A DNA stretch of 58,542 nt from a virus (lineage: Duplodnaviria; Caudoviricetes), in the IMG/VR virus record IMGVR_UViG_3300036768_001555, positions 1-58,542 of that record; one strand, 5' to 3'. Within the stretch, counting starts at the first letter, position 1. Every line of letters starts with the position of its first letter. The notes beneath the pieces are model-generated. The model made no database searches, was not told the origin of the DNA, and worked only from the letters and a program-made list of their open reading frames with translations. A program made the translations under genes and the position numbers. Below, piece by piece: positions 1 to 43,334 of this stretch.

Positions 1-1076
1 CGTGCGGCGCTCGCGGAGACGCAGCGCGAGACTGACCGTGCGGTGCGCAGCATTCAAGACCGATTGGATGCGGTCAAGCGCACGGGGAGCGACTTATTCA
101 GACCGCTCGTTGCAGGCGTCTTCGGTGCGGGCGGCGTGATCGCTGGGGTGCGCGCTGCGACGAAGGCGTTCTCTGAGTACGAGGACGCGGTCATCTCACT
201 CAGCAACAAGCTCAACAAGCCAGTAGATCAGATCAAGGATGTGACCGACGCCCTGGATGATCTGGCGCGTCGCCTGCCGATCACCCGTGAGCAAATGCTT
301 AAGATCGCTGAGGTCGGTGTAACATTCGGTGAGACCTCAGCAGCTGGTCTGGCGCGTTTCGTAGAGACGGTCGAGAAGTTCTCCAAGACGACCGGCGTCG
401 CTGCTGAAGAGGGAGCCACGGCGCTCGGTCGCTTGGCACGGGCGTTCAACATCCCTCTGGCAGAGGTAGATAAGCTCGCCTCAGCGATCAATGGAATCTC
501 CAACCAGTTCCCTGTAGACCTCAACGTGATGATAACGGGGATGCAGAGGTTCTCCGCAGCGGCGCAAGCCCTGGGGATACCTGTGGACAAGGTGCTCGCG
601 CTCTCAGGGGCGTTGGCGTCAACAGGGGCGCAGGCGCAGCGGCTCCTGCCCGCTGTTGCTGCGCTGCTCGATGACATTGCGATCAAGGCCGGAGATATGG
701 CGGCGGCCATCGGCATCTCGCTCGATGAGTTCACACGCCGCCTTAAGGAAGACCCCATTGAGTTTCTCGCGCAGATCGAGCCGCTCGTGGAGGGAAACAC
801 CGATGCGCTGAAGCTCTTCGGTGACCAAGGGGTCAAGGTCTTGCGCGAGTTGGCCGCGTCGCATGATCTCTACGGCAGAGCAGTCAAGATTGTCAATGAG
901 GAGCTGAAGACCGGTCAGGCGCTCCAAGAGGATTATACGAAGGTCGTAGCTTCAACGTCGTCTCAGATGACGATATTCGGGAACAAGCTGCGCATCCTGT
1001 GGCAGACCGTAGGGCAGCAGGTTGCTCCAGCGTTCACGGCGGCGCTGGGGGCGCTCACGCCGTTTGTGGATGAGCT
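1..1076 (+). repeat. Imperfect terminal direct repeat, copy 1 (matches 57467-58542)
   Basis: Colinear with no indels and many substitutions up to position 975; 976-1076 is identical to 58442-58542. Confidence 0.95.
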
Positions 1077-4000
1077 GACGGTGATGGTGCGCAACATCGG
1101 CCCAGTGCTGACGCAGCTAGAGCAAGTCGGGGAGTCCATCAAGGGGGTCTTCGCTGCACTCGTCGGCGGGCAAGAGAACCTTGACAAACTTGTTGGAATC
1201 ATTGCCAAGGGTGCTGCAGGCTTAGCGGCGTTCACCGCTGCGGTCGCGATGCTCAATGGTGCCTTCGGACTGCTGGGGAAGATTGGAGCGTTCGCTGTCG
1301 CGAATATCTCCCTCGTCGTCGGTGCCCTGGGAACGCTGGCCTCGCCGCTGGTGCTCATCTCCACGCTCTTGGTCACGCTGTACACGGCGTGGGTGAAAAA
1401 CTGGGGCGGGATACGCGACTTCACTGAGGGGATTACCCAGAAGCTCAGCGAGATGTTTGCAGGCATCCTTGCTGGCGCAAGCGAGGCTGGAAAGGCTGTA
1501 GCGAGCCTTGCGCAGGGGGCATTCCAGGGCACGATCGCTATCGGCAAGCTCGTGATAGACTTCGCCAGTGATGCAGCGAAGTCAGCCTATGACTGGCTGC
1601 GAGAGAACTCTGCGGAGCTGCGCGATCGTGGCATTCGTCTCGTCATTGGCCTTGCTGAGGGCGCGCAGGCGCTCTGGGAGAAGATTGCTTCGGGAGAGAT
1701 CGTCGTTTCGGTGAAGGGGGTGCTCGATGAGGCACTCGTCTGGGTGAGGGATGCTGCGGGGAAGACCCTGGAGGCAATCACAATTGTCGTGCGCTGGTCA
1801 GGAGAAAAGATCACTGAGCTGCTCGCATCTCTGCAACAGAATGAACTCGTCCTCTCGATCAAGGACACGGCGAGCGAGGTCTTGCAGCGAATCGTCGCGT
1901 GGTGGAAGAGCCTTGCTGAGGATTCGCGGCGCGTGCTGGAAGTCACAGTGCATGGCGGAGAAAAGGCGATCCAGGCCGTCGTAACTACAGGGAGGCTTGT
2001 GATAGACTTCGCCAGCGACGCGGCGCGGAGCGCCTACACCTGGCTCATGGAGCATGGGGACGCACTTCGCCAGCAGGGGATCGCCATCTCTGTCTCAGTT
2101 GCGGAAGAGGCACGACAGTTCATCGCTGGGATTCAGCAGAACCGGCTGGTAATCACAGTACAGGATCAAGCGAGCGAGGTCTTGCAACGCATCCAGCAGT
2201 TGTGGGCCGAGTTCGCCGCCGATCCTCAGCGGGCGCTCAAAGTCGTCGTGGAAGCCGGTGGGGGCGCCCTGGAGGCTCTTCAGCAAGGGGCAGCCTCGGC
2301 CACGGAGTCAGTCAAGGGATTGCTCGCTGGAGCGCAGCAGCTCGATCTGTCCCCACTGACGAACGTCTGGGAGACGATCCGCTCTGGGGCGGAGGCCGCA
2401 GGGAAGGCGCTGCTGGACTTCCTCTCTGGCATAGATAAAGCTGTCGCTTCAGGGGTTACGTTTGAGCAGCAGGTGCTCTCGCGCTGGGGAGAAGCCATTC
2501 GCACAAGCCTCTCGCAAGCAACGGAGTTTCTCCATCAGGGTGACTTTGTCCAGTCGTTCATCGCTGGGTTTTCGGATATTGCGCAGAAGGCGGCAGCGGC
2601 GTTCGTCGGCATTTTCAAGGGTGCGCTCGTCGGCGCGGAGTTTTTTGCGACGCTCGCGGGCGACTTTGCCAAGTTCATCGCGGACAATGCTAATGAATTT
2701 GCCAAGGTCATCATTGCCTGGCGGCAGCAGCTCGTCCAGGCGTTGCAGCAAGAGGACGTTGCCAAGGAAATCGTGCAGCTTGGGGGAGCTATCGCCAATG
2801 CGCTCTTTGAGGGCCTCCGCGCTGCTGGGGGGCTGTTCAACGTCTTTGTGCAGCTTGTGCAAACGGAAGTCCAGGGGTTCGTCACCCTGGGCACTCAGAT
2901 CGCTCAAGAGCTATGGAAAGGAATCTCTGGGTATCTCGGTCAGCAGCAGATTCTCCAGGTGTTGAACTTAAACTTCGGCATTGCCTTCCAGGATAAGACA
3001 GATGTATCGCAGGCGCAGCAGGCCATTAGCGACGCTATCGTGAAGGCGATCACTGGTGCTGTTTCTGGGGCTGTCCTCAAGCCGCTCATTGAAAAGGCGA
3101 TCCCTGGCTCGACGTGGATTGAGCGAGTTGCAGCAATCGGCATTCCAGTTGCGTTCGGGATCAACTTCATATTCGGCGGGGAGAAGGGTAACTGGGAAGA
3201 CGCAGTGCTGATCTCCGGTCTGGTGGCCGCCAACCTCGCGCCGATCTTGATCAAAAAGGTGCAGGAGCTTCTGGCAGGGCAGGCGGGTCTGGTGGGGATG
3301 AAGCTCGGCGGCGTGGCGACCGTCGGCGTTGGGATTGGAGCCTCACTGCTATTTAAGTTTATGAGGGCAGAGACTTCCGCAGATGAAGGATTTGCCGACA
3401 AGGTGAACCGCGCGCTCGTCGCTGGGATTCCTGCTGCGTTGGCAGGATTGCTCTCGCTCAAGTTCACGGGGAACGCCTGGGTCGCTACGATCACCGCTGG
3501 GCTGGTGCTGCAACTGCTGTGGGACAAGCTGGAAGCACCACAGAATCTGCCAGAGGAGTGGAAGCAGGTCTTGGCACCGCTCCAGGATGCCGTGAGTGTC
3601 ACACTCCCTGCGCTCCAGACGATGGTCACAAAGCTTGCCGAAGCTTTCGGTGCGCTCTTTGCGCTCCTGCGCGACGTCGGTGCGTTCAACGTCTTCAGTG
3701 CGGCTATCAAGGTTGTCGGCGAGGCCCTCAGCGGGATCGCTGGGGTGCTTCAGATGGTCACCGGTCTGCTCACCGGAGATTGGGTGCTTGCGTGGGAAGG
3801 TGCAAAGAAAGTCCTCGATAGCGTCATCTCCATCCTCAAGACCACCCTTGAAACCCTCGGCGGGATCGCCGCGAAGATTTGGGACATCATCTCTTCGCTG
3901 TTCGGCTTGAAGAATATTGGCGGGGCATTGGAGTCTCCGATCTCGCGCGCGTTCGCCTCTTCGCTGTTCGATCAGCTTCAGAAAGAACTCTCCTCGATGC

Positions 4001-7000
4001 AGCCGGAAGTCAAGGCCAAGCTCGTCCTTGATACGTCTGCTCTGCCCCCAGCAATCCTCGGCACACCGAGCATCCCTGGGATGCGTGACTTTGTCGCCGG
4101 TCTCCAGGCAACGCTCGCCAAGACGTTTGAGGAGCTGCAGCTCCCTGCGGAGCAACAGGGCGCGGTTGACCAGCTCGTGAAGACCGTGGCGAGTCTCTCG
4201 CAGTTGCTCGATGCCTACACGAAAGACCAAAAGCTCACCGCCGATGAGCTTCTCAGTCTCGTCGGTGTGCTGGCGAAGATCGAGCAGATGATGGTCGCTC
4301 TGCCGCAGGACTTGCAAAAGCTCGTGCAGCAGAACGCTGCGATCGCTTCCAACTGGCAGAGCATCGCCGCGAGCTTAGAGGCTCTTGTCGCGCAGATGAA
4401 GCTGCCGGTGGTGCACAAGCAAGCGGGCGGCTTTGTCCCTGGCGTCGGGCGCGGCGACAAGGTTCCGGCGTTGCTAGAGCCTGGGGAGTATGTAATCCCA
4501 CGAGAGATGATCGAGCGGCAGCCTGGCCTCCTGGCTGCATTGGAAGCGGCGCGTCTGGGGAAGCGCCGCTTGCCTGGGTTTGCCAAGGGTGGTCCTGTCT
4601 TGCCTGCGCCATTGTCACTTGATGAACGCGCTCCAGCGGGAGAAACTCTTCTGAATACACTACCAGCTGGTGTCTGGCAGGGGGTTCCAGAGGTCGTGCG
4701 CCGCGCGTTCAATGACGTTGTGTCCGTCCTCAGAGAGATCATCGTCTCGCTCAACCAGATGCTCACTCAGGCGTTCCCTGACCTTGGCCCAGCACAACAG
4801 CAATTGATGAAGTCCTTGCAACAGACGATCGAGAAAATCCACGAACTGGCCCACGAACTGACCACGGCGGTCTCTGCCCCCGAAGCCCCAGCAGCCACTG
4901 CTCCCGCGCCGAGCGGTGTGGGCTTGCCCCCAGCGAAGCAGCGCCTGATGCAATCGCTCTTGACGGAACCGACGACGCTTCCACCGCTTCAGATTGATCC
5001 GTTCATGCAATTTGTCTCCTCGTTAGGGAAGCGCCTGGAGGCAGCGTTCGACGTCTCGGCGTTAAAGACTCTGCGAGAGGAGATACTCGCCTGGGCAACA
5101 CAGATGCAAAATCAGCCGCAGAAGCTCTTCCTCCTGGGCCAAGGGATGGAGGACGTCATTCGTCGCGCGATCGTCTTGCAGAGCACATTCGCAGCGTTGG
5201 GGTTAGACGTCTCTGAGTTCCAGAAGTTTCTTGATGATGCCAAGGAAGCCCAAGTGCAAGCGACCAAGTCGTTCCAAGACGTCCTCAAGGAGATTCTGAA
5301 GGCGCAGCCAGTGGAGGCAGCGCAGCAGCTCAAAGCGCTCGGCGAGTCCATCGGTGACAACGTTGAGCAGATGGACGCCTGGCGCGCAGCAGTGCGCGAG
5401 CTTACGCGCGGGATCGAGACACGGATCGCTTTCTTCGAGGAGCTGGGCAAGACTGACCTGGCGCAGCAGTGGCGCGACACGCTCGCGCAAGTACAAGCGG
5501 TTTTCTCGCCGGATGCCCTGGCCGATCCTCTCGCAGCACTCAAACGCTCTCTGGAATCCCTGGACTTCTCCAATGCCCTCGAAGCTGGTGAACAGCTCCA
5601 CGGCCTAATGCAGCAGAACATTGACCTGGTGCTCAAGGATGTGCGCGCTGGGGAACTGCTCGTGGATGCTAAGCGCCAGCTCTTCCAGCACGTCCAGACG
5701 ATGATTGACGTCTACCGCGAGCTAGGGCTTCCCACTCAGCAGCTAGAGAGCACGCTGGAACAGCTCAATGTGATGTTCGGCTCCGTGGCTGATGCCTTGA
5801 AGCCCTTCCGTGAGGAGCTGGCAAAGCTCCGCGATCTTGAGCCTCTGGAGGCGGTACTGCGCATCCGCGAGATGGCCCGCGAGATCGTGCAGCCAAAGAA
5901 GATGCAGGCTGGTGGCCTCGTCCCAGGCAGCGGCGTTGGCGACAAGGTTCCGGCGTTGCTAGAGCCTGGGGAGTACGTGATTCGCCGCCAGGTTGCCCAG
6001 AAGATGTTGCCACAACTGGAGATGCTCAATGCGCGCGGGTACCAACAGGGTGGGGCAGTCCAGGGCGGCGGGGTCTTCCTCTCACCGTGGGAGATGTATT
6101 GGCAGAGGTGGGCAGAGTCGCTCACGCCGCTGGAGAATATCTCCGTTAGCGCTTATATCGGGGCGTATTATGAGGACATCAATAGCTTCTTGCGCAAACG
6201 CGTCCCTGGCACGAGAAAAATCCCTATATATCCTCCAGAAGGGGAGAGATACATAACCGTAAAAGAGCTTGCGAAACACGTGGAGTCGGCCGTGCAAAAG
6301 GCAAAATTGCCGATCTCCCGCATAGTGTACAGGGGATTCGGGTCGCTCGCGCTAGGGAATCTCGCTCTGGCCAAAGGCCCTGAAGCCTTGGAAGGGCTTA
6401 TCTTCCGTGATCCTGCGTTCCTCTCCACGAGCCTTGATCGAAATGTCGCATATGATTTTGCCCTCGGTAAGATTCAACAAGCTATATATGCGTCTAGCAA
6501 GGGGTACCCACGGTTGGCCTTCATCGGGAAGATGGTGTTGCCAGAGGGCTTTCCCGCTGCCTACCCGTCGGCAGTGTATGGTCCAGATAGCACATGGAGC
6601 TACCTGGAGCGCGAGATACTTGTGCAACGCAACATGCCGTTCCGCATTACGCAAGCCCGTTGGCTCGATGATGATCTTATCGAACTCGCATTAGAGCCGT
6701 TGCAGAAGCTGCCTGCGCGCGCATCCACGATCTTCTCGCTCCTTCTGCCCACGCCGCTGGATGTAGCCCAGGCGTTCCAAGAGGCGACGGCGGCTTGGCT
6801 CATCCAATCTGGTCGGCTCCCGCCTGCCTACGACTGGACGAAGCTCGGCGTCAACGAATACGGCGAACTGATGTACGGCGACAAGGTCATCCTGCGCAAA
6901 GGGGAGCCGATGCCAGGCTTCCAGCCCCCTGGCCTCTTCGATATGACACTGCGTCCGCTGCTGGAATCCTTGGGGTTTGTCAATACGCGCATCGAGCAAG

Positions 7001-10000
7001 CGGCGCTCGATGCGCTGGCGCAGGGATTCTCGCTGGACGAAGCCGAAAAGCTGCTGAATCGCTTGCAGGAGCAGGCATTCCGGCGCGGCGGGACGAGTAG
7101 GCCCAGCATCCCTGAGCGTGCCTCAATGGAGATGTTCCAGAAGGGCGGAGCAGTGGGGATCACGCCAGAGGAGATCGCGCGCACCGCGGAGATGCTCCGC
7201 GACCCACGGTTCGACCTCCCGCTCTCGGCGAAGGCGCTCAATCAAGCGATCGCCGAAGGAAGGTTCTATCCGCTCTTCTTACAAGCGCAACAAGAGCGCA
7301 TCCAAAACATTTTGAAGAACGCTTTGGCAGGCAAGGCAAGCGCCGAGAGGCTCTTCCGCGAGCAGCTCTTCAAAGGACTCTCCGTGGGGATCATCACCGC
7401 GAACGAAGGTGTCAAGATGAGCGAGCAGGATGTCTTGCGGTTTTTCCTGCGCGGCGAGTGGCCTAGTTACCTAGCGTCGCGGCGAGTGCAGGCATTGGAG
7501 TCCGCGGCACAGTATGCCCTCTCGGTAGATATTGCCAAGTTTGCAAGGATGAGTTCTGCCGAGCGGCTCGCAGACATTGCTGAAAACGTTTATGGATTGC
7601 AATACGTGAAGAGTGCATTCGGTTTAACAGTTGGCGGTTTTGAGAATTTAGGGACGCTGGATATTTGGATGAGCCGCGCCACGCTCGGCTCCGCAGCAAT
7701 CCCAAAGTTCTCCTCAGTGGATGAGTATCTTTCGGCACTGGAGAAGACCTTTGGTGCAGTGAGCCAGTCTGGAATCAGGCAGTGGAATGCGTTCTTTGAA
7801 CTAGGGCGGGGGGCTGCACCGCTCTTCGGCGAGGACAAGCTCGACGAGGTGTACACATTCATCGCCAAGGTCTTGCGAGAGCACTATGCGAAGGAGAAGG
7901 GGCTAGTGGCGGAGAGACTGCCTCTGGCGGACTTTCTCAAAGAGGTGCGGTCGCGGGTGCAGTCATTGGGAACGTTTGCGCAGTACAGCCACGCTGCGTT
8001 CTTCCAGGCCCTCGGCCTTACCCCAGATGACCTCCTGCAGGCGATGAACCTCCCGCCGGAGGTGTATGCCAAGGCCCAGAAGCTCTTGCAACGACCGATG
8101 TATGGGATTGAGGCATTGCCTGTCGCGCAGCGAGTGCAGAACTTGGCGCGGCTCCCGCAGGCTGCACGCGAGCTAGGGATCACCAAGACCACAGCCGTGA
8201 GCGAACTCTTCCAGGGAATGGCCTTGGCCTTGCCGACGCTGGCGGAGCCAGGACCGCTGGCATATCGGATCATGCTGCCGCAGGTGCCGGAGAACTTGAT
8301 GGACTTGGTTTCGCAGCATCTCCCTGGGGCAACAATCTACGATGATCTTGTTGGGCAGTTCAAAGGGATGGTGGAGTTCATCGGGGATGCTGCCAGTGCC
8401 ACGTCTATAGAATCCCTGGCAAGGGACTTGGCGAAGGCCGTGCGCTCCCCAGTGACGGTGATGACGGAGAATATTGCGACAGGGCAGGTCGTTGCTGAGA
8501 AGATCACCGAGGCCCTCTCCGAGGCAGGGGAGCAATTGCTGGACGTTCTCTCTGGACAGAATGTGGTGAAGCTCTACACAGAGCGGTTTGATAACCTCGC
8601 TGATTTGGCCAAGAAGTATTTTGAGAAGTTTTCCATCCAGAACGCGACGGGCGTTTGGCAAGGGGCGGTAGAGAAGAGCGCGGTGATCGAGATTCCCTTG
8701 ACGTCCGCAGATATGCTCGCCCGCGCGAGGAAGCTTGCGGAGGAAATCGCCTTGGTGAACAAGCAGCAAGCAGTGATGCTGGTGGGGCGGGACTTGGCCG
8801 GTCGCGGCTTGCAGGAATTTATCTCGGCGCCGCAGCAGGGCGTTGCCAAGGCGATTGCTGGTGCGGGCGAGCTATCGCTGGCCAAGCTGGGTGAGGCGCA
8901 AGCGATGCTCCCGCTCGAAGAGTATATCGCAAAGCTCTACCCGCGTGAGCGGTATCCGCAGCTGTGGGCTGATGAGCAGTTTGTCTCCAATCTCAAGAAA
9001 CTCTCCGCACTCGCCCAGGAGCTGCCTATACGTTCGTTCATTTCTGGATTAGCTGCGCAGAGGATATTCGAGCAGTCCCAGAGCATCATGGGAGCAGTGA
9101 TGGGGAAGACTGTTGAAGACCTCTCGCTTTATCTGAACCCTAATATCTTCGACGTTCCTTCGCTCCAGCAGGCTCTTCAATCCTATGCGGGGAGTGTCTC
9201 GCAAGGTATCTCAGATGTAATCGGGCACGAGCTGGGGCACGTCTTAGACATGATGACCAAGTATGCAGAGACGGGGATAGATGATCCGAGCTTCCGCTAC
9301 GTGAGTAGCGTGCTGACAGATGTTCTGAACACGAACGCTGAGGCTGCGCATGAGTTCATCTCCCTAGCGCTGGAGCGGCGCGGGGCACTCCCTAGCTATG
9401 ACTTTCCGCAGTGGCAGAGGCTCGTCAGCGAGTTGCGCCAACCGCACACGCTTGAGGAAATCTATGATCTCATTAACGAGACGCTGGACTTTGTCTTCTC
9501 CTTGCGCGATCAACCGAGGTTTGGCGGGTACTTCAAGAGCCTGGTGGAGTACAACAGTTTTACCGCGCAGCTTCGGAATCTCAGGGATTACACGCTCTCG
9601 CCGCATGAGCTGATGGCTGAGTTCTTTGCCCTCTACAAAGAGGGGCGCGAAGCTGCGCTGGCCAAGCTCCCCAAAGCGACGCAGGCGTTCGAGGCGCAGG
9701 TGCTCCCACGCATTGCGAAGGCGATCCCAGAGATTCAGCCATACTTTAAGGCCCTGGGTGGCGCGAAGGCATTCTTCGGCCTGGCGCTGCCTGACCCGCT
9801 CTCCGGCCTGATGGATCAATACGAGCGGCTCGCAGCGTTCCTCATTGCAGAGAAAGGGGTTTCTCCTCAAGACCTCTCGCAGCTCAATGTAGACGAGAAG
9901 GGCAACGTCTACATCGGTGAGCGGCTTGTGGTGAAGGCGGGGGAGAAGATACCGGAGAAGTATGCAGGATCGCCGTTTACGGTAGTGCGTCTGCTTGAGG

Positions 10001-13000
10001 CAGGGGTGCGCCCGTTCCTAGAGATGCTCGGCCTGGTAGAGAACCGCATCGAGGCGGCGATCAAAGAGCGGTATGGATCGGGTACGGAGTGGGATGAGGT
10101 GCTCAGCTATGTGTTCAACGCCTTGCGGGAGCAGGAGTACAAGGCACGCGGGTTCGAGTACCCCAAGCCGTTCGCGGCTGGTGGGTACACTGGCCCTGGC
10201 GGGGTGATGGAACCGGCGGGGATTGTGCACAAAGGGGAGTATGTCATCCCCGCGTGGATGGTGCGGGCTATGCCAGAGACCATCGCCGCACTGGAAGCAG
10301 TGCGGCGGCGTGGCTATGCCAGGGGCGGCCCCGCCGCGGGGATCATTCGCGCGGAGACCTTCACGGCAATTGACCGAGCCACGGCTGCGTTCGAGGCGCT
10401 CACCGAAGCAGTCGAGGGTGTGACCGACACCATCCAGGCACTGCCGCAGACGGTCGTTCAGCCAAAGCCTGTACCCCAGGCTTCTGTGCCTAATCCAGAG
10501 GAGGCCCTTAAGCTTTTGGCTGAAGAGCAACGTAAGATTTTCCGAGACTTGCAAGAGAAGATTCAGGTGCGCAAGGAACTCGGCTTAGAAGTGCCAGAGG
10601 AGTGGATGAGGCAGTTCCGCATCCTCTCGGCGATAATCGAGCGCGATCTCTCCCCTGCGGCACAAGAGCTTGCGAAACGGCTTATCGAGCTGGATTTGAA
10701 GCCGAGCGTCGAGGCGATCAAGACGATCAAGGAGTTAGGCGTAGCCGCAGGGATGGACTCAGAGCAACTTGGGCTGTTGGCGGAAGAGTCGCGCCGCCTC
10801 TTCTTGGAGCAGCAGCAGCTGGCATCGAGCCTGCGCGAGCTAGGGTTCACAGAAAAAGCCAAGGAGATCGAATCGGCGATGACGGAGATGCGCCTAGCGC
10901 TGCTCGAAGGCTCTGGAGAGGTTGCGGAGATTCTCAAGCTGCAATTCTCTAAGCTGGACTTCACGCGCCCGTCCGAGGAGCTGGCGCGCACGATCCAAGA
11001 GACCATCCCCCAGGCGCTCCAACAGGGGGGCGAAGCGATCTCCGTGGCCGCTGATGCCGTGGCAAAACTCATCTCCTCGGCGGAGCAGCGGGTGCGGGAC
11101 TTGCAAACCATTGGTGCGCCAGAGGAGATGATCCGCGCAGCTGAGGAGACGGTGTACACGATCAAGTCCATGTTCGCGGATGCGGCAACCCGCGCCAAGA
11201 TGGAGCTGGAACGGCAGCTCTCCGGCATTGGCGCAGAGCAGACGGTCTCGGAGTTTCTCGCCAATGTCGGCAAGAGCATAGAGCAGTTCCAGCAGCTCTG
11301 GGCCTCGCAGGGGGACAACATCGAGGGCCTGAAGATGGTGCGCAGCGCGATGGAGGCATACCGGCACAACTTGGAGGAGATCGTGTCCATCCTGCCGCCC
11401 TACACAGAGGCGCACCGGCAGGCGCAGGCAGCCTTAGAGCAGTATACCTTGGCAATGGCTCAAGCCAGCGGCGATGCCTTCACGGTGCTTCAGACGGCAC
11501 TGGGGAAGCTCGGCTCTCAGGAGACGGTCACCGACTTCCTCAACGCCGTTGAAGCGGATGTGCAGAGCCTGCTCAAGCTGCGCTCGCTCAACGAGGACAA
11601 CATCGCCTGGCTCAAGGCGATCCACAGCAAGTACCGCGAGATGATCAACACATTCGAGGAGATCATTGCGCTCCTGCCAGAGGGGTCACAGGAGCAACGC
11701 GCGGCGATGGAGCAGCTGACGCGAGTGCAGGAGATGTGGGCCAGCGCCACAGGCGCAGCGACCGATGTCGTGGCTGCGTTCACGCAAAAGCTCCAGGGTG
11801 TGACCATCGAGAAGTTCCTAAGCCCAGAGACGTTCTCCAGCGCAGTAACGCAGTTGCAAGGGTTCATCCAAGAGGCAATCACGAGCGGGAATATTCAGAT
11901 GCTGCGCGCGGTGGCGGATCAAAAGCGCAGCATCGAGTCTGCGTTCCAGGACTTGATCGCCAGCTTCGAAGCCTTGGGGCTGTCTACCGATGAGCTGCGC
12001 CAGCGGTTCGCGGAGTTTCAGAAGGCATTCGCTGGGGATGCGCAAGGGGCGCTAGCGGCGTTGCAGGCAGAGATCGAACGATTGAAAGCAGAACCTATCG
12101 GCACTGGCCTCTTCCGTGCCCAGACCGGCGGCCTCGTCCCTGGAAGCGGCGTTGGCGACAAGGTTCCGGCGTTGCTAGAGCCAGGAGAATTCGTCGTGCG
12201 ACGCGAGATTGCCCAGAAGATGCTCCCGTGGCTTCAGTGGATCAACGCGCGAGGCTACCAAGAGGGTGGGGCAGTGCCTGCGGGGACCATGCGGGTAGAG
12301 GTCGCTTCAACGCCTGTGCAAGCCGCGGCAGAATCTGCGCAGCGGGCCGCGGAAGCCGTTGCCGAAGCCGGAGAGCGCGTCTTAGACGAAATCCAGCAGG
12401 CATCTCTCCCCAAGACCGCCGACGCAACGCTTCTTAAGATCGCTGAAGACCAGAAGGAGCTGCTTCAGAAGACCTTCGAGGTCTTGAAAGAGATCAATGA
12501 GCGCCAGAAGCAGCAAGTGACCATCGCCTCGAAGCAAGCGCAGGATCAGAAGGAGAAGGGACAGCCGAAAGAGCAGTCGCCGAATGTCTTGGCAGGAATC
12601 ATCCAGAGGGCGCAGGAGCGCAGCGCGCAGATGGCGCAGCGCGGCGCGGAACTCCTCAAAGACCCACAAGCGTTGATGAACGCGCTCTTTGCGGAGTTCG
12701 CGGCTGAAGCGCAGCGCATCCCACAGATCATCCACGACGCGCTCGCTGAGGGCGGCCCACAGGCGCTCGCAGGCATCCAAGAGCTGCTGCGACTCTTCCA
12801 GCAGCAGCAAGAGGATTGGCTCTCTACGCTGGAGATGCTCGGTGTGAGCACTGAAGAGTTTGCACTGAAGCTGCGCAAGCTCAACGCCTCGCTCCTCGTA
12901 GAAGGCCCGCGCAAGAAGCTCGAAGAGCTGAAGATTTCTCTCGACGAGATGGTGCGCTCACTCAAGCCCGAAGACATCCTGGCGCGCAAGGACGAGATCA

Positions 13001-15777
13001 TCGCACAATTCCGTCAGCTTGCCCAGGACACCTTTGGCGATCCAGCGATGCGCAAAGAGGTCGTCTCGGCGATCTCGGCCTTCTCGTCCAATATTCGAGA
13101 GACTATTGATTCCATGAAGGCGATCCTTGGTGTGCTGCCGCAAGATGTGAAACCGCAGGTGCAAGCCTTAGAGCAATTTCTGGCAGACTTTGAAGACACC
13201 TTCACTGGGGCGAGCAAGTCCCTCGCTGAGCGCATCCGCCAGAAGCTCGACACGCTTCTGGACTTTGATGTCCTCTCACCGCAGGATGCACTCAATATTA
13301 TCATGCAGCAGTTTGCCGAGCTGATGCAAAACGCTGGCGGGAAGGACTGGTTCCAGCTCGGCCCAGCTATTGCCGAGATCGCCAGGGCAAAGGATGCACT
13401 CATCTCGCGGATCGAGGAGTCTGCGTCGGCTTTAGAGTCGCTTGGGTTTAGCGCAAATGACCTGCGCCAGCAGATGCTCTCCATCAATGCACAGTTTGCT
13501 GGTCTGCCCAAGGAAGTCCTCGATATAGTGAACTCCCTGGACTTCACGAAGCCCGTAGAGTCTGCACACAAGCTCCTCACCGCCTTCACGATGATTCCAC
13601 GGGAGAATAAGCTTGCGCAGGACTTCATCATCAAAGCACGCGAGGAGATGCTGGCATCGCTTGAACGAGAGATTGAGCGTCGTCGTGCGCTCGGCCTGAG
13701 CACCTACTTCTTAGAGAAAGAGCTAGAGCGAGCGCGGGCAGGCTTTGGCGCGCTCTCCCCAGCAATGCAGCGGTTCGCCGACGCGTTGCAGTCAGGGGTG
13801 AAGAGCTTCGTCGGGGAACTCTTCGGCCCGCTCGCTCCGGTCGTGAATGACATCATCTTCAATACCATTGGTGGGGCACTCGTCAATGCGTTGCAAGACC
13901 TGACACTGCCCAACCAAGCGCCTGCGGCGGAGACCGCTAATGGCTTGAAGGCCGTCACAGATTCATCCTACGAGGCCGCGCGTGCCTTGGCGGAACTCGT
14001 TACTTCCAGTTCTGCTGTCTCTGAAGAGCTTCGTGCTCGTGCGGCTAAGGTTCAGGAGTCGCTTGAGGCTCGTGCTCCAGGACAACTAGAGCAATTCGCT
14101 CGATCCATCACTGATGCACAGAAACTCTATCATCAGACACCTCAGACACCTCTCGCTGAGCCGGTGTGGAGGCCAGGGATGCGCGCAGGGCTGGCGCATC
14201 CCTTGTGGACGCCCCAGATGCCACGCGCTCAGCTCATGGAAGCAGCTCCAAAGACTCAGCAAGCGGCGGTGCAAGCGCAAGCGGAGCATATCACACGGGA
14301 CACAGAAGCAGTTGCTAAGCAGAGCGAGGCTGTCGCCCAAGCGACCGTTGAAGTTGGCCTCTTTGCTAAGGCGCTTCATATCGGGACAGAAACAATCCAG
14401 AGCGTCGCGAACTTCTTAGATTCTCTCGGAATCGGCCTGGACTCTGTTGCACAGTCATTTTTTGGCTTACTCATGCAATCGCAGTCGTACAAGCGCCTCA
14501 TGGAAGAGCTGCAGCCGATCATCCAGGCACTCGCTGATGCCCTGGGCTTGATCTTGGAACCCCTTGTGGACATCGTGCGTGCGCTGCGGGAGTTTCTGGG
14601 AATCACGAAAGATGTGAACGATGCGTTCAGTATGACCAGTGCGAACATCCCCACGGGGTTCAAGGCTGAGCGCCTGCGCTACGCCGCGGCGATCCCTGAT
14701 CAGCCTCCGCTGGGGCGAGGGGGCACGGGGGGCGGGGGCGGAATCTTTGCGCCGATTATCGAGTTCTTTAAGGCGCTCACGAAGATTCCCATCGTCGGGG
14801 AACTGCTCAAGTTTGCGTTCTGGGTGGCGCGGCTCACCCTGGCGTTCATTGTGCTGGACAAGATCATTCGTGCGATCCCGATCATCGGGCAGATATACGA
14901 TGAGCTTGTGAAAGCTATCGCCAAGCCTATTGCCAACTGGGTTTGGGAGACGATCCTCAAGCCAGGATGGGAGTGGTTCGTGCACAATGTTGCTGCGCCG
15001 CTATGGGGAGAACTGGTGGAAGCTGGAGAAAAGATGCTCGATTGGTTTTTTGAAAACATCGCTGCGCCATCGTGGAACTGGTTCGTACAGAGCGTGCTCA
15101 AGCCTGGATGGGAGTGGATTGCTGCTAACGTCGGCAAGTGGCTTGGCGATGCCTTGGCCAATATGAATTGGGGGGAGCTGACCATCGCGGCGGGGACGGT
15201 GTATCTCCTTGGAGAGATTGGGAAGTTCCTGGAACGCACAGGTGAGAACATTGCACAGCAAGGATTGGCAACGGGGAACCCTGTCCAGGTTGCGCTAGGG
15301 CGTGGAACACAGTTTGCGGGGACGGGGTTGAAGTGGGGAGCGATCCTAGGGGCAATCGCTGGCTTTTTCTTCGGCGGTCTACCTGGGGCTGCTCTAGGGG
15401 CGGCTATTGGTGCAGGGGCTGGAGCAACAACTGGGCTTGTCGCTGGCGTGGGCTATGGTGCCATTGAAGGGATGCATAGACAGCGGGAAGCCGCTGTGCC
15501 ACATCTCCAGATGGGTGGATATGTCGCACAGACAGGTCTTGCGGTCGTGCACGCTGGGGAGTACGTGATCCCTAAGTGGAAGGTGCCGGAATTGTCGGTA
15601 AGCGTGCCAGAGGTAACGGTGAACGTGCCGCAGGCGAGCGGCGGCGGCAACGAGCCAATCTACATCGGCCAGCTGGTCATAGACGATCCTGACCTCAGCC
15701 GCCGCCTGCGGGAGTACATCAAGACCAAAAACCTGCGGCAGCGTGGCTTGGGTGTGTCGCACACACTGCTCGACTGA
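1..15777 (+). CDS. Giant tape measure protein with internal enzyme-like domains (5' end lies across the circular junction; true ATG at 57404; about 5,279 aa in total)
   Basis: Open frame from position 1 to the TGA ending at 15777. The N-terminus is a TP901-type TMP core (AFSEYEDAV...LARRLPITREQMLKIAEVG). It also has Ala/Gly-rich hydrophobic stretches, Trp-spaced 11-aa repeats near the C-terminus (KPGWEWF...APSWNWF...KPGWEWI) and a terminal HLQMGGYV...VHAGEYVIP motif. On the circle it lies downstream of the tail tube and chaperone genes. Confidence 0.93.
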   Translation, partial: RAALAETQRETDRAVRSIQDRLDAVKRTGSDLFRPLVAGVFGAGGVIAGVRAATKAFSEYEDAVISLSNKLNKPVDQIKDVTDALDDLARRLPITREQMLKIAEVGVTFGETSAAGLARFVETVEKFSKTTGVAAEEGATALGRLARAFNIPLAEVDKLASAINGISNQFPVDLNVMITGMQRFSAAAQALGIPVDKVLALSGALASTGAQAQRLLPAVAALLDDIAIKAGDMAAAIGISLDEFTRRLKEDPIEFLAQIEPLVEGNTDALKLFGDQGVKVLRELAASHDLYGRAVKIVNEELKTGQALQEDYTKVVASTSSQMTIFGNKLRILWQTVGQQVAPAFTAALGALTPFVDELTVMVRNIGPVLTQLEQVGESIKGVFAALVGGQENLDKLVGIIAKGAAGLAAFTAAVAMLNGAFGLLGKIGAFAVANISLVVGALGTLASPLVLISTLLVTLYTAWVKNWGGIRDFTEGITQKLSEMFAGILAGASEAGKAVASLAQGAFQGTIAIGKLVIDFASDAAKSAYDWLRENSAELRDRGIRLVIGLAEGAQALWEKIASGEIVVSVKGVLDEALVWVRDAAGKTLEAITIVVRWSGEKITELLASLQQNELVLSIKDTASEVLQRIVAWWKSLAEDSRRVLEVTVHGGEKAIQAVVTTGRLVIDFASDAARSAYTWLMEHGDALRQQGIAISVSVAEEARQFIAGIQQNRLVITVQDQASEVLQRIQQLWAEFAADPQRALKVVVEAGGGALEALQQGAASATESVKGLLAGAQQLDLSPLTNVWETIRSGAEAAGKALLDFLSGIDKAVASGVTFEQQVLSRWGEAIRTSLSQATEFLHQGDFVQSFIAGFSDIAQKAAAAFVGIFKGALVGAEFFATLAGDFAKFIADNANEFAKVIIAWRQQLVQALQQEDVAKEIVQLGGAIANALFEGLRAAGGLFNVFVQLVQTEVQGFVTLGTQIAQELWKGISGYLGQQQILQVLNLNFGIAFQDKTDVSQAQQAISDAIVKAITGAVSGAVLKPLIEKAIPGSTWIERVAAIGIPVAFGINFIFGGEKGNWEDAVLISGLVAANLAPILIKKVQELLAGQAGLVGMKLGGVATVGVGIGASLLFKFMRAETSADEGFADKVNRALVAGIPAALAGLLSLKFTGNAWVATITAGLVLQLLWDKLEAPQNLPEEWKQVLAPLQDAVSVTLPALQTMVTKLAEAFGALFALLRDVGAFNVFSAAIKVVGEALSGIAGVLQMVTGLLTGDWVLAWEGAKKVLDSVISILKTTLETLGGIAAKIWDIISSLFGLKNIGGALESPISRAFASSLFDQLQKELSSMQPEVKAKLVLDTSALPPAILGTPSIPGMRDFVAGLQATLAKTFEELQLPAEQQGAVDQLVKTVASLSQLLDAYTKDQKLTADELLSLVGVLAKIEQMMVALPQDLQKLVQQNAAIASNWQSIAASLEALVAQMKLPVVHKQAGGFVPGVGRGDKVPALLEPGEYVIPREMIERQPGLLAALEAARLGKRRLPGFAKGGPVLPAPLSLDERAPAGETLLNTLPAGVWQGVPEVVRRAFNDVVSVLREIIVSLNQMLTQAFPDLGPAQQQLMKSLQQTIEKIHELAHELTTAVSAPEAPAATAPAPSGVGLPPAKQRLMQSLLTEPTTLPPLQIDPFMQFVSSLGKRLEAAFDVSALKTLREEILAWATQMQNQPQKLFLLGQGMEDVIRRAIVLQSTFAALGLDVSEFQKFLDDAKEAQVQATKSFQDVLKEILKAQPVEAAQQLKALGESIGDNVEQMDAWRAAVRELTRGIETRIAFFEELGKTDLAQQWRDTLAQVQAVFSPDALADPLAALKRSLESLDFSNALEAGEQLHGLMQQNIDLVLKDVRAGELLVDAKRQLFQHVQTMIDVYRELGLPTQQLESTLEQLNVMFGSVADALKPFREELAKLRDLEPLEAVLRIREMAREIVQPKKMQAGGLVPGSGVGDKVPALLEPGEYVIRRQVAQKMLPQLEMLNARGYQQGGAVQGGGVFLSPWEMYWQRWAESLTPLENISVSAYIGAYYEDINSFLRKRVPGTRKIPIYPPEGERYITVKELAKHVESAVQKAKLPISRIVYRGFGSLALGNLALAKGPEALEGLIFRDPAFLSTSLDRNVAYDFALGKIQQAIYASSKGYPRLAFIGKMVLPEGFPAAYPSAVYGPDSTWSYLEREILVQRNMPFRITQARWLDDDLIELALEPLQKLPARASTIFSLLLPTPLDVAQAFQEATAAWLIQSGRLPPAYDWTKLGVNEYGELMYGDKVILRKGEPMPGFQPPGLFDMTLRPLLESLGFVNTRIEQAALDALAQGFSLDEAEKLLNRLQEQAFRRGGTSRPSIPERASMEMFQKGGAVGITPEEIARTAEMLRDPRFDLPLSAKALNQAIAEGRFYPLFLQAQQERIQNILKNALAGKASAERLFREQLFKGLSVGIITANEGVKMSEQDVLRFFLRGEWPSYLASRRVQALESAAQYALSVDIAKFARMSSAERLADIAENVYGLQYVKSAFGLTVGGFENLGTLDIWMSRATLGSAAIPKFSSVDEYLSALEKTFGAVSQSGIRQWNAFFELGRGAAPLFGEDKLDEVYTFIAKVLREHYAKEKGLVAERLPLADFLKEVRSRVQSLGTFAQYSHAAFFQALGLTPDDLLQAMNLPPEVYAKAQKLLQRPMYGIEALPVAQRVQNLARLPQAARELGITKTTAVSELFQGMALALPTLAEPGPLAYRIMLPQVPENLMDLVSQHLPGATIYDDLVGQFKGMVEFIGDAASATSIESLARDLAKAVRSPVTVMTENIATGQVVAEKITEALSEAGEQLLDVLSGQNVVKLYTERFDNLADLAKKYFEKFSIQNATGVWQGAVEKSAVIEIPLTSADMLARARKLAEEIALVNKQQAVMLVGRDLAGRGLQEFISAPQQGVAKAIAGAGELSLAKLGEAQAMLPLEEYIAKLYPRERYPQLWADEQFVSNLKKLSALAQELPIRSFISGLAAQRIFEQSQSIMGAVMGKTVEDLSLYLNPNIFDVPSLQQALQSYAGSVSQGISDVIGHELGHVLDMMTKYAETGIDDPSFRYVSSVLTDVLNTNAEAAHEFISLALERRGALPSYDFPQWQRLVSELRQPHTLEEIYDLINETLDFVFSLRDQPRFGGYFKSLVEYNSFTAQLRNLRDYTLSPHELMAEFFALYKEGREAALAKLPKATQAFEAQVLPRIAKAIPEIQPYFKALGGAKAFFGLALPDPLSGLMDQYERLAAFLIAEKGVSPQDLSQLNVDEKGNVYIGERLVVKAGEKIPEKYAGSPFTVVRLLEAGVRPFLEMLGLVENRIEAAIKERYGSGTEWDEVLSYVFNALREQEYKARGFEYPKPFAAGGYTGPGGVMEPAGIVHKGEYVIPAWMVRAMPETIAALEAVRRRGYARGGPAAGIIRAETFTAIDRATAAFEALTEAVEGVTDTIQALPQTVVQPKPVPQASVPNPEEALKLLAEEQRKIFRDLQEKIQVRKELGLEVPEEWMRQFRILSAIIERDLSPAAQELAKRLIELDLKPSVEAIKTIKELGVAAGMDSEQLGLLAEESRRLFLEQQQLASSLRELGFTEKAKEIESAMTEMRLALLEGSGEVAEILKLQFSKLDFTRPSEELARTIQETIPQALQQGGEAISVAADAVAKLISSAEQRVRDLQTIGAPEEMIRAAEETVYTIKSMFADAATRAKMELERQLSGIGAEQTVSEFLANVGKSIEQFQQLWASQGDNIEGLKMVRSAMEAYRHNLEEIVSILPPYTEAHRQAQAALEQYTLAMAQASGDAFTVLQTALGKLGSQETVTDFLNAVEADVQSLLKLRSLNEDNIAWLKAIHSKYREMINTFEEIIALLPEGSQEQRAAMEQLTRVQEMWASATGAATDVVAAFTQKLQGVTIEKFLSPETFSSAVTQLQGFIQEAITSGNIQMLRAVADQKRSIESAFQDLIASFEALGLSTDELRQRFAEFQKAFAGDAQGALAALQAEIERLKAEPIGTGLFRAQTGGLVPGSGVGDKVPALLEPGEFVVRREIAQKMLPWLQWINARGYQEGGAVPAGTMRVEVASTPVQAAAESAQRAAEAVAEAGERVLDEIQQASLPKTADATLLKIAEDQKELLQKTFEVLKEINERQKQQVTIASKQAQDQKEKGQPKEQSPNVLAGIIQRAQERSAQMAQRGAELLKDPQALMNALFAEFAAEAQRIPQIIHDALAEGGPQALAGIQELLRLFQQQQEDWLSTLEMLGVSTEEFALKLRKLNASLLVEGPRKKLEELKISLDEMVRSLKPEDILARKDEIIAQFRQLAQDTFGDPAMRKEVVSAISAFSSNIRETIDSMKAILGVLPQDVKPQVQALEQFLADFEDTFTGASKSLAERIRQKLDTLLDFDVLSPQDALNIIMQQFAELMQNAGGKDWFQLGPAIAEIARAKDALISRIEESASALESLGFSANDLRQQMLSINAQFAGLPKEVLDIVNSLDFTKPVESAHKLLTAFTMIPRENKLAQDFIIKAREEMLASLEREIERRRALGLSTYFLEKELERARAGFGALSPAMQRFADALQSGVKSFVGELFGPLAPVVNDIIFNTIGGALVNALQDLTLPNQAPAAETANGLKAVTDSSYEAARALAELVTSSSAVSEELRARAAKVQESLEARAPGQLEQFARSITDAQKLYHQTPQTPLAEPVWRPGMRAGLAHPLWTPQMPRAQLMEAAPKTQQAAVQAQAEHITRDTEAVAKQSEAVAQATVEVGLFAKALHIGTETIQSVANFLDSLGIGLDSVAQSFFGLLMQSQSYKRLMEELQPIIQALADALGLILEPLVDIVRALREFLGITKDVNDAFSMTSANIPTGFKAERLRYAAAIPDQPPLGRGGTGGGGGIFAPIIEFFKALTKIPIVGELLKFAFWVARLTLAFIVLDKIIRAIPIIGQIYDELVKAIAKPIANWVWETILKPGWEWFVHNVAAPLWGELVEAGEKMLDWFFENIAAPSWNWFVQSVLKPGWEWIAANVGKWLGDALANMNWGELTIAAGTVYLLGEIGKFLERTGENIAQQGLATGNPVQVALGRGTQFAGTGLKWGAILGAIAGFFFGGLPGAALGAAIGAGAGATTGLVAGVGYGAIEGMHRQREAAVPHLQMGGYVAQTGLAVVHAGEYVIPKWKVPELSVSVPEVTVNVPQASGGGNEPIYIGQLVIDDPDLSRRLREYIKTKNLRQRGLGVSHTLLD
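6100..6700 (+). other. VIP2/C3/Alt-like ADP-ribosyltransferase domain inside the TMP
   Basis: Y...Y.DIN..LR helix, VYRG (YRG at 6328), FLSTS (STS at 6424) and E-R-E-ILVQRN (6607-6615): the complete R-S-E catalytic signature in the correct order. Confidence 0.88.
7340..8010 (+). other. HhH-superfamily DNA glycosylase-like domain inside the TMP
   Basis: LFKGLSVGIITAN ... ENVYGLQYVKSAFGLTVGGFENLGTLDIWMSR resembles Ogg2-type motifs (FKELCFCILTAN ... KGIGYKEASHFLRNVG..DVAIIDRH). Lys at 7609 and Asp at 7660 are in plausible catalytic positions. Confidence 0.6.
8260..8790 (+). other. Tandem small alpha/beta domains, PII-like/SAM-lyase(DUF3574)-like, inside the TMP
   Basis: KYFEKFSIQNATGVWQGAVEKSAVIEI...LAEEIALVNKQQAVMLV fits the F..FT.....G.W.G..E.S...A..I.....Q.AV pattern. 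A degenerate copy (HLPGATIYDDLVGQFKG...LARDLAKAV) precedes it. Confidence 0.45.
9000..9720 (+). other. Zincin (HExxH) metallopeptidase domain inside the TMP
   Basis: VIGHELGHVLD (His at 9226 and 9238), followed by the Y.LSPHELMAEFFALY helix that could supply the third zinc ligand (Glu at 9607). Confidence 0.75.
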
Positions 15778-20160: not shown

Positions 20161-20880
20161 ATGCGCTGGGACGACAGCGATGATGAAGAGCACACCAGCA
20201 TCCACGACAGGGAGATCGAGCGGGCACTACTAGAGTACGGCTTTCTCTTCTTTGATCAGCCGATCACACCGGCATCGGCGGCGGAGTTCCTCAAGCGCCT
20301 GCAACTGCTGGAACTCTTCTGGGAAGTGCGCTCTGAGAAAGACTTCGTGGTGTGCTACGTTTCATCGCCTGGCGGCGATGTCAATGCCATGCTCGCGATG
20401 CACGACGCCATTACCAACGCGAGCATTCCTCTGGTGGGGGTAGGGATGGGAGAGGTCGCCTCAGCAGCAGTGTGTCTGCTCGCATCGTTCCCGCGTCGCT
20501 TTGCATACCCCAACACACGGTTTCTCCTGCACAAGATGGAAGCCTCAAACCTGGGGGGCAACCCTGAGCAGGTTGAAAGCGTCTCCCAGGAGATCGCGTA
20601 TCTCAATGCTGTGCTGGTGCGCCTGTTGGCGAAGCAAACCTTCCAAAAAGAGAAGGTGATCAGGCAGCTCATCGAGCGTGAGAGTTACTTTGGCGTGGAT
20701 GAGGCCATCAAGCTGGGGATCATCCACGGAATTGTGGTACGCGAAGGAGCGAAGGATGCAGGAGCGTCATCGTCGCGTGTACGAACTCGCGCGACAGGGG
20801 AAAAGCATCGCGGAGATCGCTCGCATCTGCAACCTCAAGAGAAAAAGCGTGAGAAACCGCCTGCGCGAACTGGTAGATGA
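20161..20880 (+). CDS. clpP: ClpP-like (S14) protease
   Basis: SSPGGDV, GEVASAA (Ser), RFAYPNTRFLLH (His), EAIKLGII. The expected catalytic Asp reads as E (RESYF). Confidence 0.85.
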   Translation: MRWDDSDDEEHTSIHDREIERALLEYGFLFFDQPITPASAAEFLKRLQLLELFWEVRSEKDFVVCYVSSPGGDVNAMLAMHDAITNASIPLVGVGMGEVASAAVCLLASFPRRFAYPNTRFLLHKMEASNLGGNPEQVESVSQEIAYLNAVLVRLLAKQTFQKEKVIRQLIERESYFGVDEAIKLGIIHGIVVREGAKDAGASSSRVRTRATGEKHRGDRSHLQPQEKKREKPPARTGR

Positions 20881-42796: not shown

Positions 42797-43323
42797 TGCC
42801 GAGCCAGACGCGCTCCCCTGGGACGATTGTGGATGATGCTTCTTACGGGACTGTTGCATGGCGCAACCCAGGGAACGCTGCTGCAAGCGATGACCTCTAC
42901 GCGGATACCTCTCTGGCATTTGCCAGTCCCATGCAGACGCACTACCTTAAGGCGACGAACTTCGGGTTTACAATCCCTGCGGGAATGACGATCACGGGGA
43001 TCAAAGTGGAGATCGAGCGACATGCTTTAAACTATGTCGTGGACAACCGTGTGCGACTGGTGAAGGCCGGTGCGGTGCAGTCCACTGACAAAGCGTCGAG
43101 CACTCCCTGGCCGAGCGCGGATGCCTACGCCTCCTATGGCGGCGATGGCGACACCTGGGGAGCTGCCTGGGCGGTGCAGGATATAAACGACAGTGGTTTT
43201 GGCGTGGTTCTGGCAGCGACGATCGGCGATGGTATTGATGCGGCGAGGCCGTTTGTGGATCACATTCAGATTACGGTGTACTACGCGGAGAGCAGTCAGC
43301 ATGTGGCAGCACAGTGCGTGTAA
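42796..43323 (+). CDS. Probable virion beta-sandwich (decoration/appendage) protein
   Basis: AWRNPGNA...LKATNFGFTIP.G.TITGIKVEI...YGGDGDTWG...VDHIQITVYY, a pattern seen in phage structural proteins. Confidence 0.6.
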   Translation: MPSQTRSPGTIVDDASYGTVAWRNPGNAAASDDLYADTSLAFASPMQTHYLKATNFGFTIPAGMTITGIKVEIERHALNYVVDNRVRLVKAGAVQSTDKASSTPWPSADAYASYGGDGDTWGAAWAVQDINDSGFGVVLAATIGDGIDAARPFVDHIQITVYYAESSQHVAAQCV

Positions 43324-43334
43324 GAGGTGAGACG

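Follow-up and report, generated by a model that had tools for sequence, protein, structure and literature searches.

We analysed the IMG/VR record IMGVR_UViG_3300036768_001555, 58,542 nt from a tailed virus (Caudoviricetes), at its full length (hereafter the window), and identified within its giant tape measure protein (TMP) a putative DNA glycosylase domain of the HhH-GPD superfamily. The stretch at nt ~7228-8016 of the + strand (aa ~2410-2672 of the TMP) is predicted to encode a folded, all-helical HhH-GPD domain, as delimited by a multiple alignment, a profile search of the PDB, AlphaFold2 (AF2) models, and Foldseek and VIA-align searches. By sequence and model, the domain is filed in this superfamily nearest to the Ogg2 enzymes, but it is not a true Ogg2. 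An initial annotation of the same DNA, made from its letters alone, had placed an Ogg2-like domain of a virion tail protein at nt 7340-8010; this span matches the domain almost exactly, and an additional N-terminal helix (~nt 7228-7264), which belongs to the domain according to the second AF2 model, was added here. The four motifs it quoted were all found in frame 1, within the single 5258-aa open frame of the TMP, with nt 7609 corresponding to Lys2537 and nt 7660 to Asp2554.

Sequence relatives and invariant residues

A 400-aa query stretch containing the domain (P0001, nt 7111-8310) was compared by phmmer with 1.84 billion representative proteins, yielding 15 matches, 13 of which were true relatives (E 1.3e-94 to 3e-4). 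The top match, P0002, is another giant TMP (E 1.3e-94), and the other 12 relatives are stand-alone proteins of 154-223 aa spanning query residues ~80-235 (E 5.9e-17 to 3e-4). Two matches that are not relatives of the domain were omitted from the alignments: P0003, a fish epiplakin that matches another part of the query, and P0014, a 1516-aa hypothetical protein of Stella vacuolata that matches P0001 residues 237-372, partly beyond the domain. P0014 is a bacterial repeat protein matching nt ~7820-8225 of the window several times (E 1.2e-4 by phmmer, 29% by blastp), a stretch composed of the insertion described below, the last domain helix and the subsequent linker.

The window domain, the corresponding segment of P0002 and the 12 small proteins were combined into alignment A1 (14 sequences). 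Its invariant columns comprise the Gly-Leu of the hairpin, Lys2537, Asp2554, a Tyr and the His of the motif FAQYSHAAFF; the hairpin Gly and Leu, together with Lys2537 and Asp2554, were invariant in three alignments (14/14, 9/9 and 19/19 sequences). Along the domain, the first core helix, LFKGLSVGIITAN (nt 7366-7404), is the counterpart of the "ILTAN" helix of Ogg2. The helix-hairpin-helix (HhH) element occupies nt 7555-7632, as delimited by DSSP on the first AF2 model and by A1, and consists of a helix, the hairpin V-Y-G-L-Q and the helix Y-V-K-S-A-F-G-L-T-V; the segment ENVYGLQYVKSAF (nt 7582-7620, frame 1, + strand) lies within it. The latter helix carries Lys2537 (nt 7609-7611), a candidate Schiff-base nucleophile that is offset by one residue in the alignment with the Ogg2 of Methanocaldococcus jannaschii (MjaOgg). 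The Gly-rich loop GGFENLGTL and Asp2554 (nt 7660-7662) follow as the putative "GPD" element (nt 7633-7662), overlapping the segment GFENLGTLDIWMSR (nt 7636-7677, frame 1, + strand). Further downstream, an insertion of ~51 aa (nt 7819-7971, A1 columns 207-257) is confined to the TMP copies, being absent from 12/12 stand-alone relatives and shorter in P0002. The C-terminal helix FAQYSHAAFF (nt 7975-8004) contains His2664 (nt 7990-7992; H220 in the alignment), and because this His is invariant in 14/14 sequences of A1, we assign the helix to the same domain as its last element; the His is not conserved in a shorter sub-clade represented by the L002 and L016 loci.

Predicted fold and family assignment

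When the A1 profile was searched against 177,635 PDB sequences, 10 rows were obtained at E<=10, and all 6 with E<0.01 were Ogg2-type: 3knt and 3fhf (M. jannaschii, 5e-5 and 6e-5), 9o02, 9o00, 9o01 and 3n0u (T. maritima, TmOgg). The profile alignment places the Asp2554 column on the catalytic Asp of IIDRH in MjaOgg. In Pfam, Ogg-HhH (PF22175) was the only glycosylase family touched by the relatives, in 7/10 and 4/7 sequences, with all scores (11.6-21.6 bits) below the gathering cut-off of 27 bits. A 254-aa phage protein from the L016 locus passes this cut-off at 34.8 bits, and its residues 55-225 align with residues 18-187 of MjaOgg, nearly the full length (E 2.6e-5). The same protein bears out the LTAN helix that the initial annotation had recognised: CILTANFTAE of MjaOgg aligns with AICSVHTTWE of the L016 protein, which in turn shares its column with GIITANEGVK of the window. 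Two other candidates were rejected. PF23802 (DUF7178), suggested by the Atlas language model at 0.95, had no match in the window at E<=10, and DNA polymerase alpha, the sole PDB row returned for the single sequence (E 0.4), was a chance match.

Two AF2 models were built, the first from 14 sequences (233 aa; predicted local distance difference test [pLDDT] 81.3, predicted template modelling score [pTM] 0.70) and the second from 19 sequences with an N-terminal extension (283 aa; pLDDT 79.0, pTM 0.72). In the first model, DSSP assigned a helix to residues 75-85, the hairpin to 86-90 and a second helix to 91-100, with a pLDDT of 93-97 over the HhH; the loop GGFENLGTL then leads to Asp110 (Asp2554), which caps helix 111-118. 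The stretch from the HhH to residue 118 is the most confident part of this model (pLDDT 91-97), and the pLDDT falls to 48-89 within the insertion. Thus the HhH motif, on whose presence in a predicted fold the initial annotation had made its reading depend, was found in the models.

Foldseek ranked Ogg2 chains 1-6 for both models at a probability of 0.99-1.00, with weak E-values (1e-2 to 3e-1). VIA-align scored TmOgg and MjaOgg at Z 12.1, 11.3 and 10.6, and all 50 listed rows were HhH-GPD glycosylases, the next matches being AlkA, Mag1, Mag2, OGG1 and EndoIII at Z 8-10. A VIA-align search of 48,161 representative chains, made independently of Foldseek, again returned TmOgg at the top, with 156 residues aligned at a root-mean-square deviation of 3.2 Å and Z 12.0, a value below the level deemed safe for helical proteins, in which arrangement alone can give it. 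In this search the second row scored Z 9.8, ranks 1-23 all belonged to the HhH-GPD superfamily, and unrelated rows began at Z 5.2; the second AF2 model reproduced the Ogg2-first ranking. The structural ranking agrees with the independent sequence-based result. The predicted domain therefore combines an HhH hairpin, a Gly-rich loop with an invariant Asp and a two-lobed all-helical fold, and because the phmmer relatives, the PDB profile, the AF2 structural matches and the Pfam-passing L016 homologue agree, we regard it as a real HhH-GPD domain. The Ogg2-like identity first proposed from the letters is thereby supported by the PDB profile (E 5e-5), by both AF2 models and by the Ogg-HhH matches of the homologues.

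The tape measure protein

The protein that carries the domain is a TMP, in agreement with its earlier description as a virion tail protein. Frame 1 of the + strand is open over nt 1-15777 (5258 codons) and open at its 5' end. PF10145 (PhageMin_Tail) matches aa 83-269 of the product (E 4.6e-13), and many PHROG "tail length tape measure" families match it, the best at E 7.9e-36. Since the two ends of the contig are 92.7%-identical copies, the true start of the gene is an ATG at nt 57404: nt 57467-58542 and nt 1-1076 share 92.7% nucleotide and 96% amino acid identity, and the product of nt 57404-58542 (+ strand), a variant copy of the 5' end, also matches PHROG tape measure families (best E 1.6e-36). 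The record probably represents a circular or permuted genome, in whose assembly two strain variants were joined. Counting the 21 codons at the other contig end, the full TMP has ~5279 aa and takes up ~27% of a genome of ~57.5 kb. Genes for terminase, portal, protease and major head protein were identified with PHROG upstream of the TMP start (nt 37.7-46.5 kb), and a tail-spike-like gene lies downstream. The signature domains, the very long helical protein and the placement after head and tail genes are all those of a TMP. The relative P0002, of 5302 aa, is 56% identical to the window TMP over its full length.

The domain lies between an ADP-ribosyltransferase (ART) domain and a region with an HExxH motif, in the fastest-evolving third of the TMP. 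This cargo third (aa 2000-3400) is the part least conserved against P0002, and within it identity is highest in the domain core, at 58-63% compared with 38-39% for the ART region and 29-33% for the HExxH region. The G+C content of nt 6001-10000 is 0.575-0.580, against 0.606 and 0.612 in the flanks.

Departures from Ogg2

The initial annotation had read the HhH as a divergent form of the G.G.K hairpin with a downstream catalytic Asp; the Asp is at the expected position, but the Lys is not. In the ungapped alignment with MjaOgg, the invariant Lys lies one residue past its place in the canonical G-x-G-x-K, which in the family is occupied by V, A, P or C. The beginning of the second HhH helix directly after the hairpin in the first model is consistent with this offset, and a one-residue gap in the alignment would restore a K-x-A pattern. 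The second Gly of the hairpin is Gln in the window, and Gly in 10/13 and Ser in 3/13 of the other sequences. Two residues ahead of the Asp, 12/12 stand-alone proteins have a Cys and both TMP copies a Thr.

The C-terminus differs as well. In Ogg2 enzymes the C-terminal Lys is described as strictly conserved and as sensing N7-H of 8-oxoguanine (8-oxoG) through its carboxylate, and C-terminal truncation as abolishing 8-oxoG excision while apurinic/apyrimidinic (AP) lyase activity is retained (PMC3397491). A free C-terminal Lys is impossible in the window, where the domain is internal and is followed by ~2600 aa; because it is absent, 8-oxoG is not the expected substrate. The C-termini of the stand-alone relatives are mostly varied, with a terminal Lys confined to P0008/L008 and the L002 type.

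Distribution of the stand-alone relatives

The nearest sequence relatives of the domain form a rare clade of stand-alone proteins of ~150-260 aa, and the contexts that are visible are phage or phage-like contigs. Loci of confirmed relatives were found on 5 IMG/VR contigs, in a scan with alignment A2, and on 13 metagenome contigs; scans of viral contigs with P0001 and with A1 confirmed no relative. A word-index search with A2 recovered only 5 proteins, and a separate word-index search aimed at fused forms of 409-2000 aa revealed none, which is weak evidence; the TMP-embedded form was seen only in the window and in P0002. Against GenBank phages, neither megablast of nt 6000-10000 nor tblastn of the domain and of the cargo region (nt 5983-10200) gave a match, and 0/9 clade sequences matched PHROGs at E<=1. 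A distant GenBank relative, gp118 of Haloarcula tailed virus 2, is annotated as "endonuclease III". A pattern scan of the genomes of 185,579 prokaryotic species (one each) gave 4 pattern matches, none of which was confirmed; as a single degenerate pattern was used, this is weak evidence for absence of the clade from cellular genomes.

The nameable neighbours of the stand-alone relatives are DNA-metabolism genes. The 254-aa member at the L016 locus, found on marine-type metagenome contigs, lies near genes for an ATP-dependent DNA ligase and a GHKL ATPase; the relative at L002 lies near RecA-like and radical-SAM genes, and that at L008 near a terminase gene. A sub-clade of low G+C content (L016, nt 7530-8291; L002, nt 5644-6294; L003-L006 and L013-L020) differs in its Lys-to-Asp spacing (19, not 17) and its short C-terminus, and one of its types ends in Lys, as true Ogg2 does. 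On the sequence comparisons, the stand-alone proteins define a rare, unannotated phage clade of putative Ogg2-like proteins in which the Lys is displaced and a Cys is invariant.

Regions flanking the domain in the TMP

Upstream of the domain, on the same strand, nt 6100-6660 encode an ART domain of the R-S-E type, which matches PF03496 (ADPrib_exo_Tox) at E 9.2e-15 and 54.9 bits against a cut-off of 23.4, with the motifs YRGF at nt 6328, STS at nt 6424 and ExE at nt 6607. Downstream, the motif HELGH (HExxH; nt 9226-9240, + strand; HELSH in P0002) marks a putative zincin-like metallopeptidase region, nt 8848-9870, which at 29-33% identity is the least conserved part against P0002. This region matched no Pfam or PHROG family, and the leads offered for it by the Atlas language model (IrrE-like, zincin-like, LPD1 and LPD23) all scored <0.9. 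An alignment of the region with full-length P0002 was scattered and was not used.

Both the ART domain and the HExxH region are followed by a "post-enzyme tail" of ~100 aa (nt 6811-7125 and nt 9856-10185, + strand). These tails match each other by blastp with 31.6% identity over 98 aa (E 1.8e-14), a sign that the cargo cassettes may share an origin. The protein is divided by a GG..(PG)..E[YF]V[IV] motif, revealed by regular expression and MAFFT, whose five copies start at nt 4426, 5911, 10180, 12127 and 15514, the last at the true C-terminus; PHROG TMP profiles put this motif near the C-termini of TMPs. The giant TMP has the look of a chain of several TMP-like modules, and the motifs could also be processing sites; a self-blastp of the TMP at E 1e-4 gave no rows. 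Two further genes of the window were observed outside the TMP: a glycosyltransferase-like gene among the tail genes just before it (nt 53920-55041; phrog_2170, E 4e-12), and a ClpP-like or head-protease-like gene after it (nt 20161-20877; phrog_94, E 1.6e-16), additional to the head protease at nt 43314-45089.

Proposed function and alternatives

We favour, with some reserve, the view that the TMP-embedded HhH-GPD domain is delivered with the tail and excises a base from DNA before phage genes are expressed. On infection, the TMP would be driven out of the tail tube before the DNA, and its cargo region would reach the cytoplasm, where the neighbouring metallopeptidase-like region may cut the cargo free. 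The domain would then bind duplex DNA through its hairpin and flip a base into its pocket, and Asp2554 would cleave the N-glycosidic bond, with Lys2537 either forming a Schiff base (glycosylase plus AP lyase) or holding the DNA backbone; the domain would perhaps also nick the DNA. Being ready-made in the tail, such an enzyme would be at work on DNA ahead of all phage gene expression. The incoming phage genome and host DNA are about equally likely as its early target: repair of phage DNA is suggested by the ligase and RecA-like genes near the free relatives, and host takeover by the ART next to the domain. Without the free C-terminal Lys with which Ogg2 enzymes sense 8-oxoG, the substrate is unlikely to be recognised in their manner.

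A number of points weigh against this view. Catalysis and cell entry are both what we infer for the domain, and a domain of ~260 aa may be too large, when folded, for the lumen of the tail tube and would then have to travel unfolded. HhH-GPD homologues that lack glycosylase activity exist, and the structural matches include Mag2, which according to its PDB title is a glycosylase homologue bound to abasic DNA. The nucleophile role of Lys2537 is uncertain because this residue is off the canonical position, and to this are added the Gln in place of the second hairpin Gly, the Thr in place of the family Cys and the insertion, which breaks up the C-terminal part of the domain. As for the family assignment, the window domain or P0001 alone matched nothing in Pfam, PHROG or a single-sequence search of the PDB, and PF22175 did not match the window at E<=10, so that the assignment is carried by profiles, relatives and predicted structure, with weak Foldseek E-values and a best Z of ~12.

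Several of these points would also suit a module that binds DNA and excises nothing, tethering or piloting the incoming DNA at the TMP pore and perhaps holding on to abasic or distorted sites or to the leading genome end. The displaced Lys, the Gln for the hairpin Gly and the loss of the family Cys in both TMP copies fit such a role, as does the match to Mag2, solved on abasic DNA (Z 9.4-9.7); in addition, the authors of the work on Thermus phage P23-45 propose that its TMP-fused enzyme works at the TMP pore during DNA passage (PMC10770324). We nevertheless consider a purely binding module unlikely: every relative retains both Asp and Lys, the two TMP copies among them at an overall identity of only 56%, and a helix-capping Asp is not needed for binding alone. 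The domain might instead be a decaying passenger, a captured phage Ogg2-like gene that now serves only as TMP length or filler. It sits in the least conserved third of the TMP; three positions conserved in the family are substituted in the TMP copies, which also have an insertion of their own; and the surroundings of the domain (nt 6001-10000) have a slightly lower G+C content than the flanks. However, its core is better conserved than the rest of the cargo (58-63% versus 29-39%), the invariant residues are all retained in two diverged TMPs, and AF2 predicts the fold with confidence (pLDDT >90 over the HhH-GPD core), which speaks for a structure that is being maintained and makes decay improbable.

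Enzymes of a different kind were also weighed. Phage Pplase2 enzymes act in thymidine hypermodification, and DUF2419 is a queuine-salvage enzyme. A Pplase2-like transferase that modifies DNA bases, or a DUF2419-like hydrolase of free nucleosides, could stand in place of a repair-type glycosylase. Pplase2 is described as HhH-containing and profile-related to the helical glycosylase superfamily, and the aGPT-Pplase2 transferases as combining a catalytic Cys with a metal site in this HhH-containing fold (PMC13458397); the stand-alone relatives of the window domain do carry an invariant Cys, and DUF2419 appears among the structural matches (Z 5.8 and 5.1). This Cys is Thr in the TMP copies, though, and at E<=1 the relatives match no Pfam family except Ogg-HhH and obvious noise. 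Moreover, Ogg2 outranks everything else in both sequence and fold, and no hydroxymethylase, kinase or other hypermodification gene was found among the 30 open reading frames of the window that were scanned. Such an activity is accordingly given little credence. Chance resemblance within the helical filler of a tape measure could be argued from the failure of the window domain alone to match any curated family. It is hardly credible when thirteen independent relatives share the same invariant residues, the profile match to Ogg2 is significant, and the compact predicted fold finds Ogg2 best in an unbiased search; we regard it as refuted by the relatives, the invariant columns, the PDB profile and the unbiased fold search.

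Delivery of a base-excising enzyme, the view favoured here, also has a bolder form, to which we give some weight while doubting it. The TMP would be the vehicle of a cytoplasmic effector cassette made up of the ART, a DNA glycosylase/lyase and a releasing peptidase, and the glycosylase a new kind of weapon, ejected against the host or to counter its defences. It would act within seconds of adsorption, either by nicking the host chromosome at a base that is missing or protected in the phage's own DNA, or by removing from the incoming genome a mark imposed by the host.

Comparison with known systems

The fold and chemistry are known; what is new is the embedding in a TMP, the three-part cargo and the phage clade with a displaced Lys and a Cys. 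In Creative Commons full texts of PMC and bioRxiv, we found no description of a virion tail protein with such a domain, nor of the three-part TMP cargo or of the displaced-Lys, Cys-bearing clade. Like the Ogg2 enzymes (MjaOgg, 3FHF/3KNT; TmOgg, 3N0U; PF22175), the window domain is a protein unit of ~200 aa without the A-domain of OGG1, with a two-lobed all-helical fold (Z 12.0-12.1), an N-terminal ILTAN-like helix, a hairpin G-h-G, and a Gly-rich loop and catalytic Asp at matching positions. Unlike them, its family has G-L-x-x-x-K where Ogg2 has G-x-G-x-K, and the window domain has no free C-terminal Lys, carries a 51-aa insertion and is embedded in a protein of 5280 aa. The stand-alone phage clade (P0004-P0020; L002-L020; gp118 of Haloarcula tailed virus 2) is 22-33% identical to it across the domain and shares the invariant Gly-Leu, Lys, Asp, Tyr and His and the 17-residue spacing from Lys to Asp, whereas its members are free proteins of 150-260 aa from DNA-metabolism gene blocks, with the Cys and without the insertion. 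This clade is a compact target for biochemistry.

The combination of domains recalls the polyvalent proteins of Iyer et al. (2017), described as virion-associated polypeptides of phages and conjugative elements that combine unrelated enzymatic domains, such as an ART and a zincin-like peptidase, and proposed to be injected and possibly self-processed (PMC5512222). The window TMP likewise joins several unrelated domains of catalytic type (ART, HhH-GPD and HExxH) in one polypeptide, here known from sequence. According to the same paper, R-S-E ARTs do not occur in genuine polyvalent proteins, so that the ART clade of the window differs from the one treated there, and the words "glycosylase" and "tape measure" are absent from its text (PMC5512222). 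Virion-borne ARTs of the VIP2 type are described as fused to MuF proteins in actinophages (PMC7302621).

For the TMP as a carrier, the closest case is P23-45. TMPs are usually seen as length rulers that may carry cell-wall hydrolases. The gp96 protein of P23-45 is described as a 5,002-aa TMP to which a virion RNA polymerase for the transcription of pre-early genes is fused, and its authors picture TMPs as being metastable while in the tube and as undergoing injection into the envelope (PMC10770324). By analogy, gp96 appears to resemble the window TMP in its size (~5000 aa), its nucleic-acid enzyme cargo and its metallopeptidase region, and its enzyme is reported to act within the cell from the first moment of infection; the two differ in that the P23-45 cargo is an N-terminal two-barrel RNA polymerase, and that of the window a mid-protein ART, HhH-GPD domain and HExxH region (PMC10770324). 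As the fused polymerase showed that a TMP can carry a cytoplasmic enzyme (PMC10770324), the P23-45 TMP would be the best precedent for the delivery proposed here. The window would add a second, unrelated example, with a three-part cargo that includes a DNA base-excision-type enzyme, and, if this domain is active, base-excising enzymes would join the set of proteins that phages inject before their genes.

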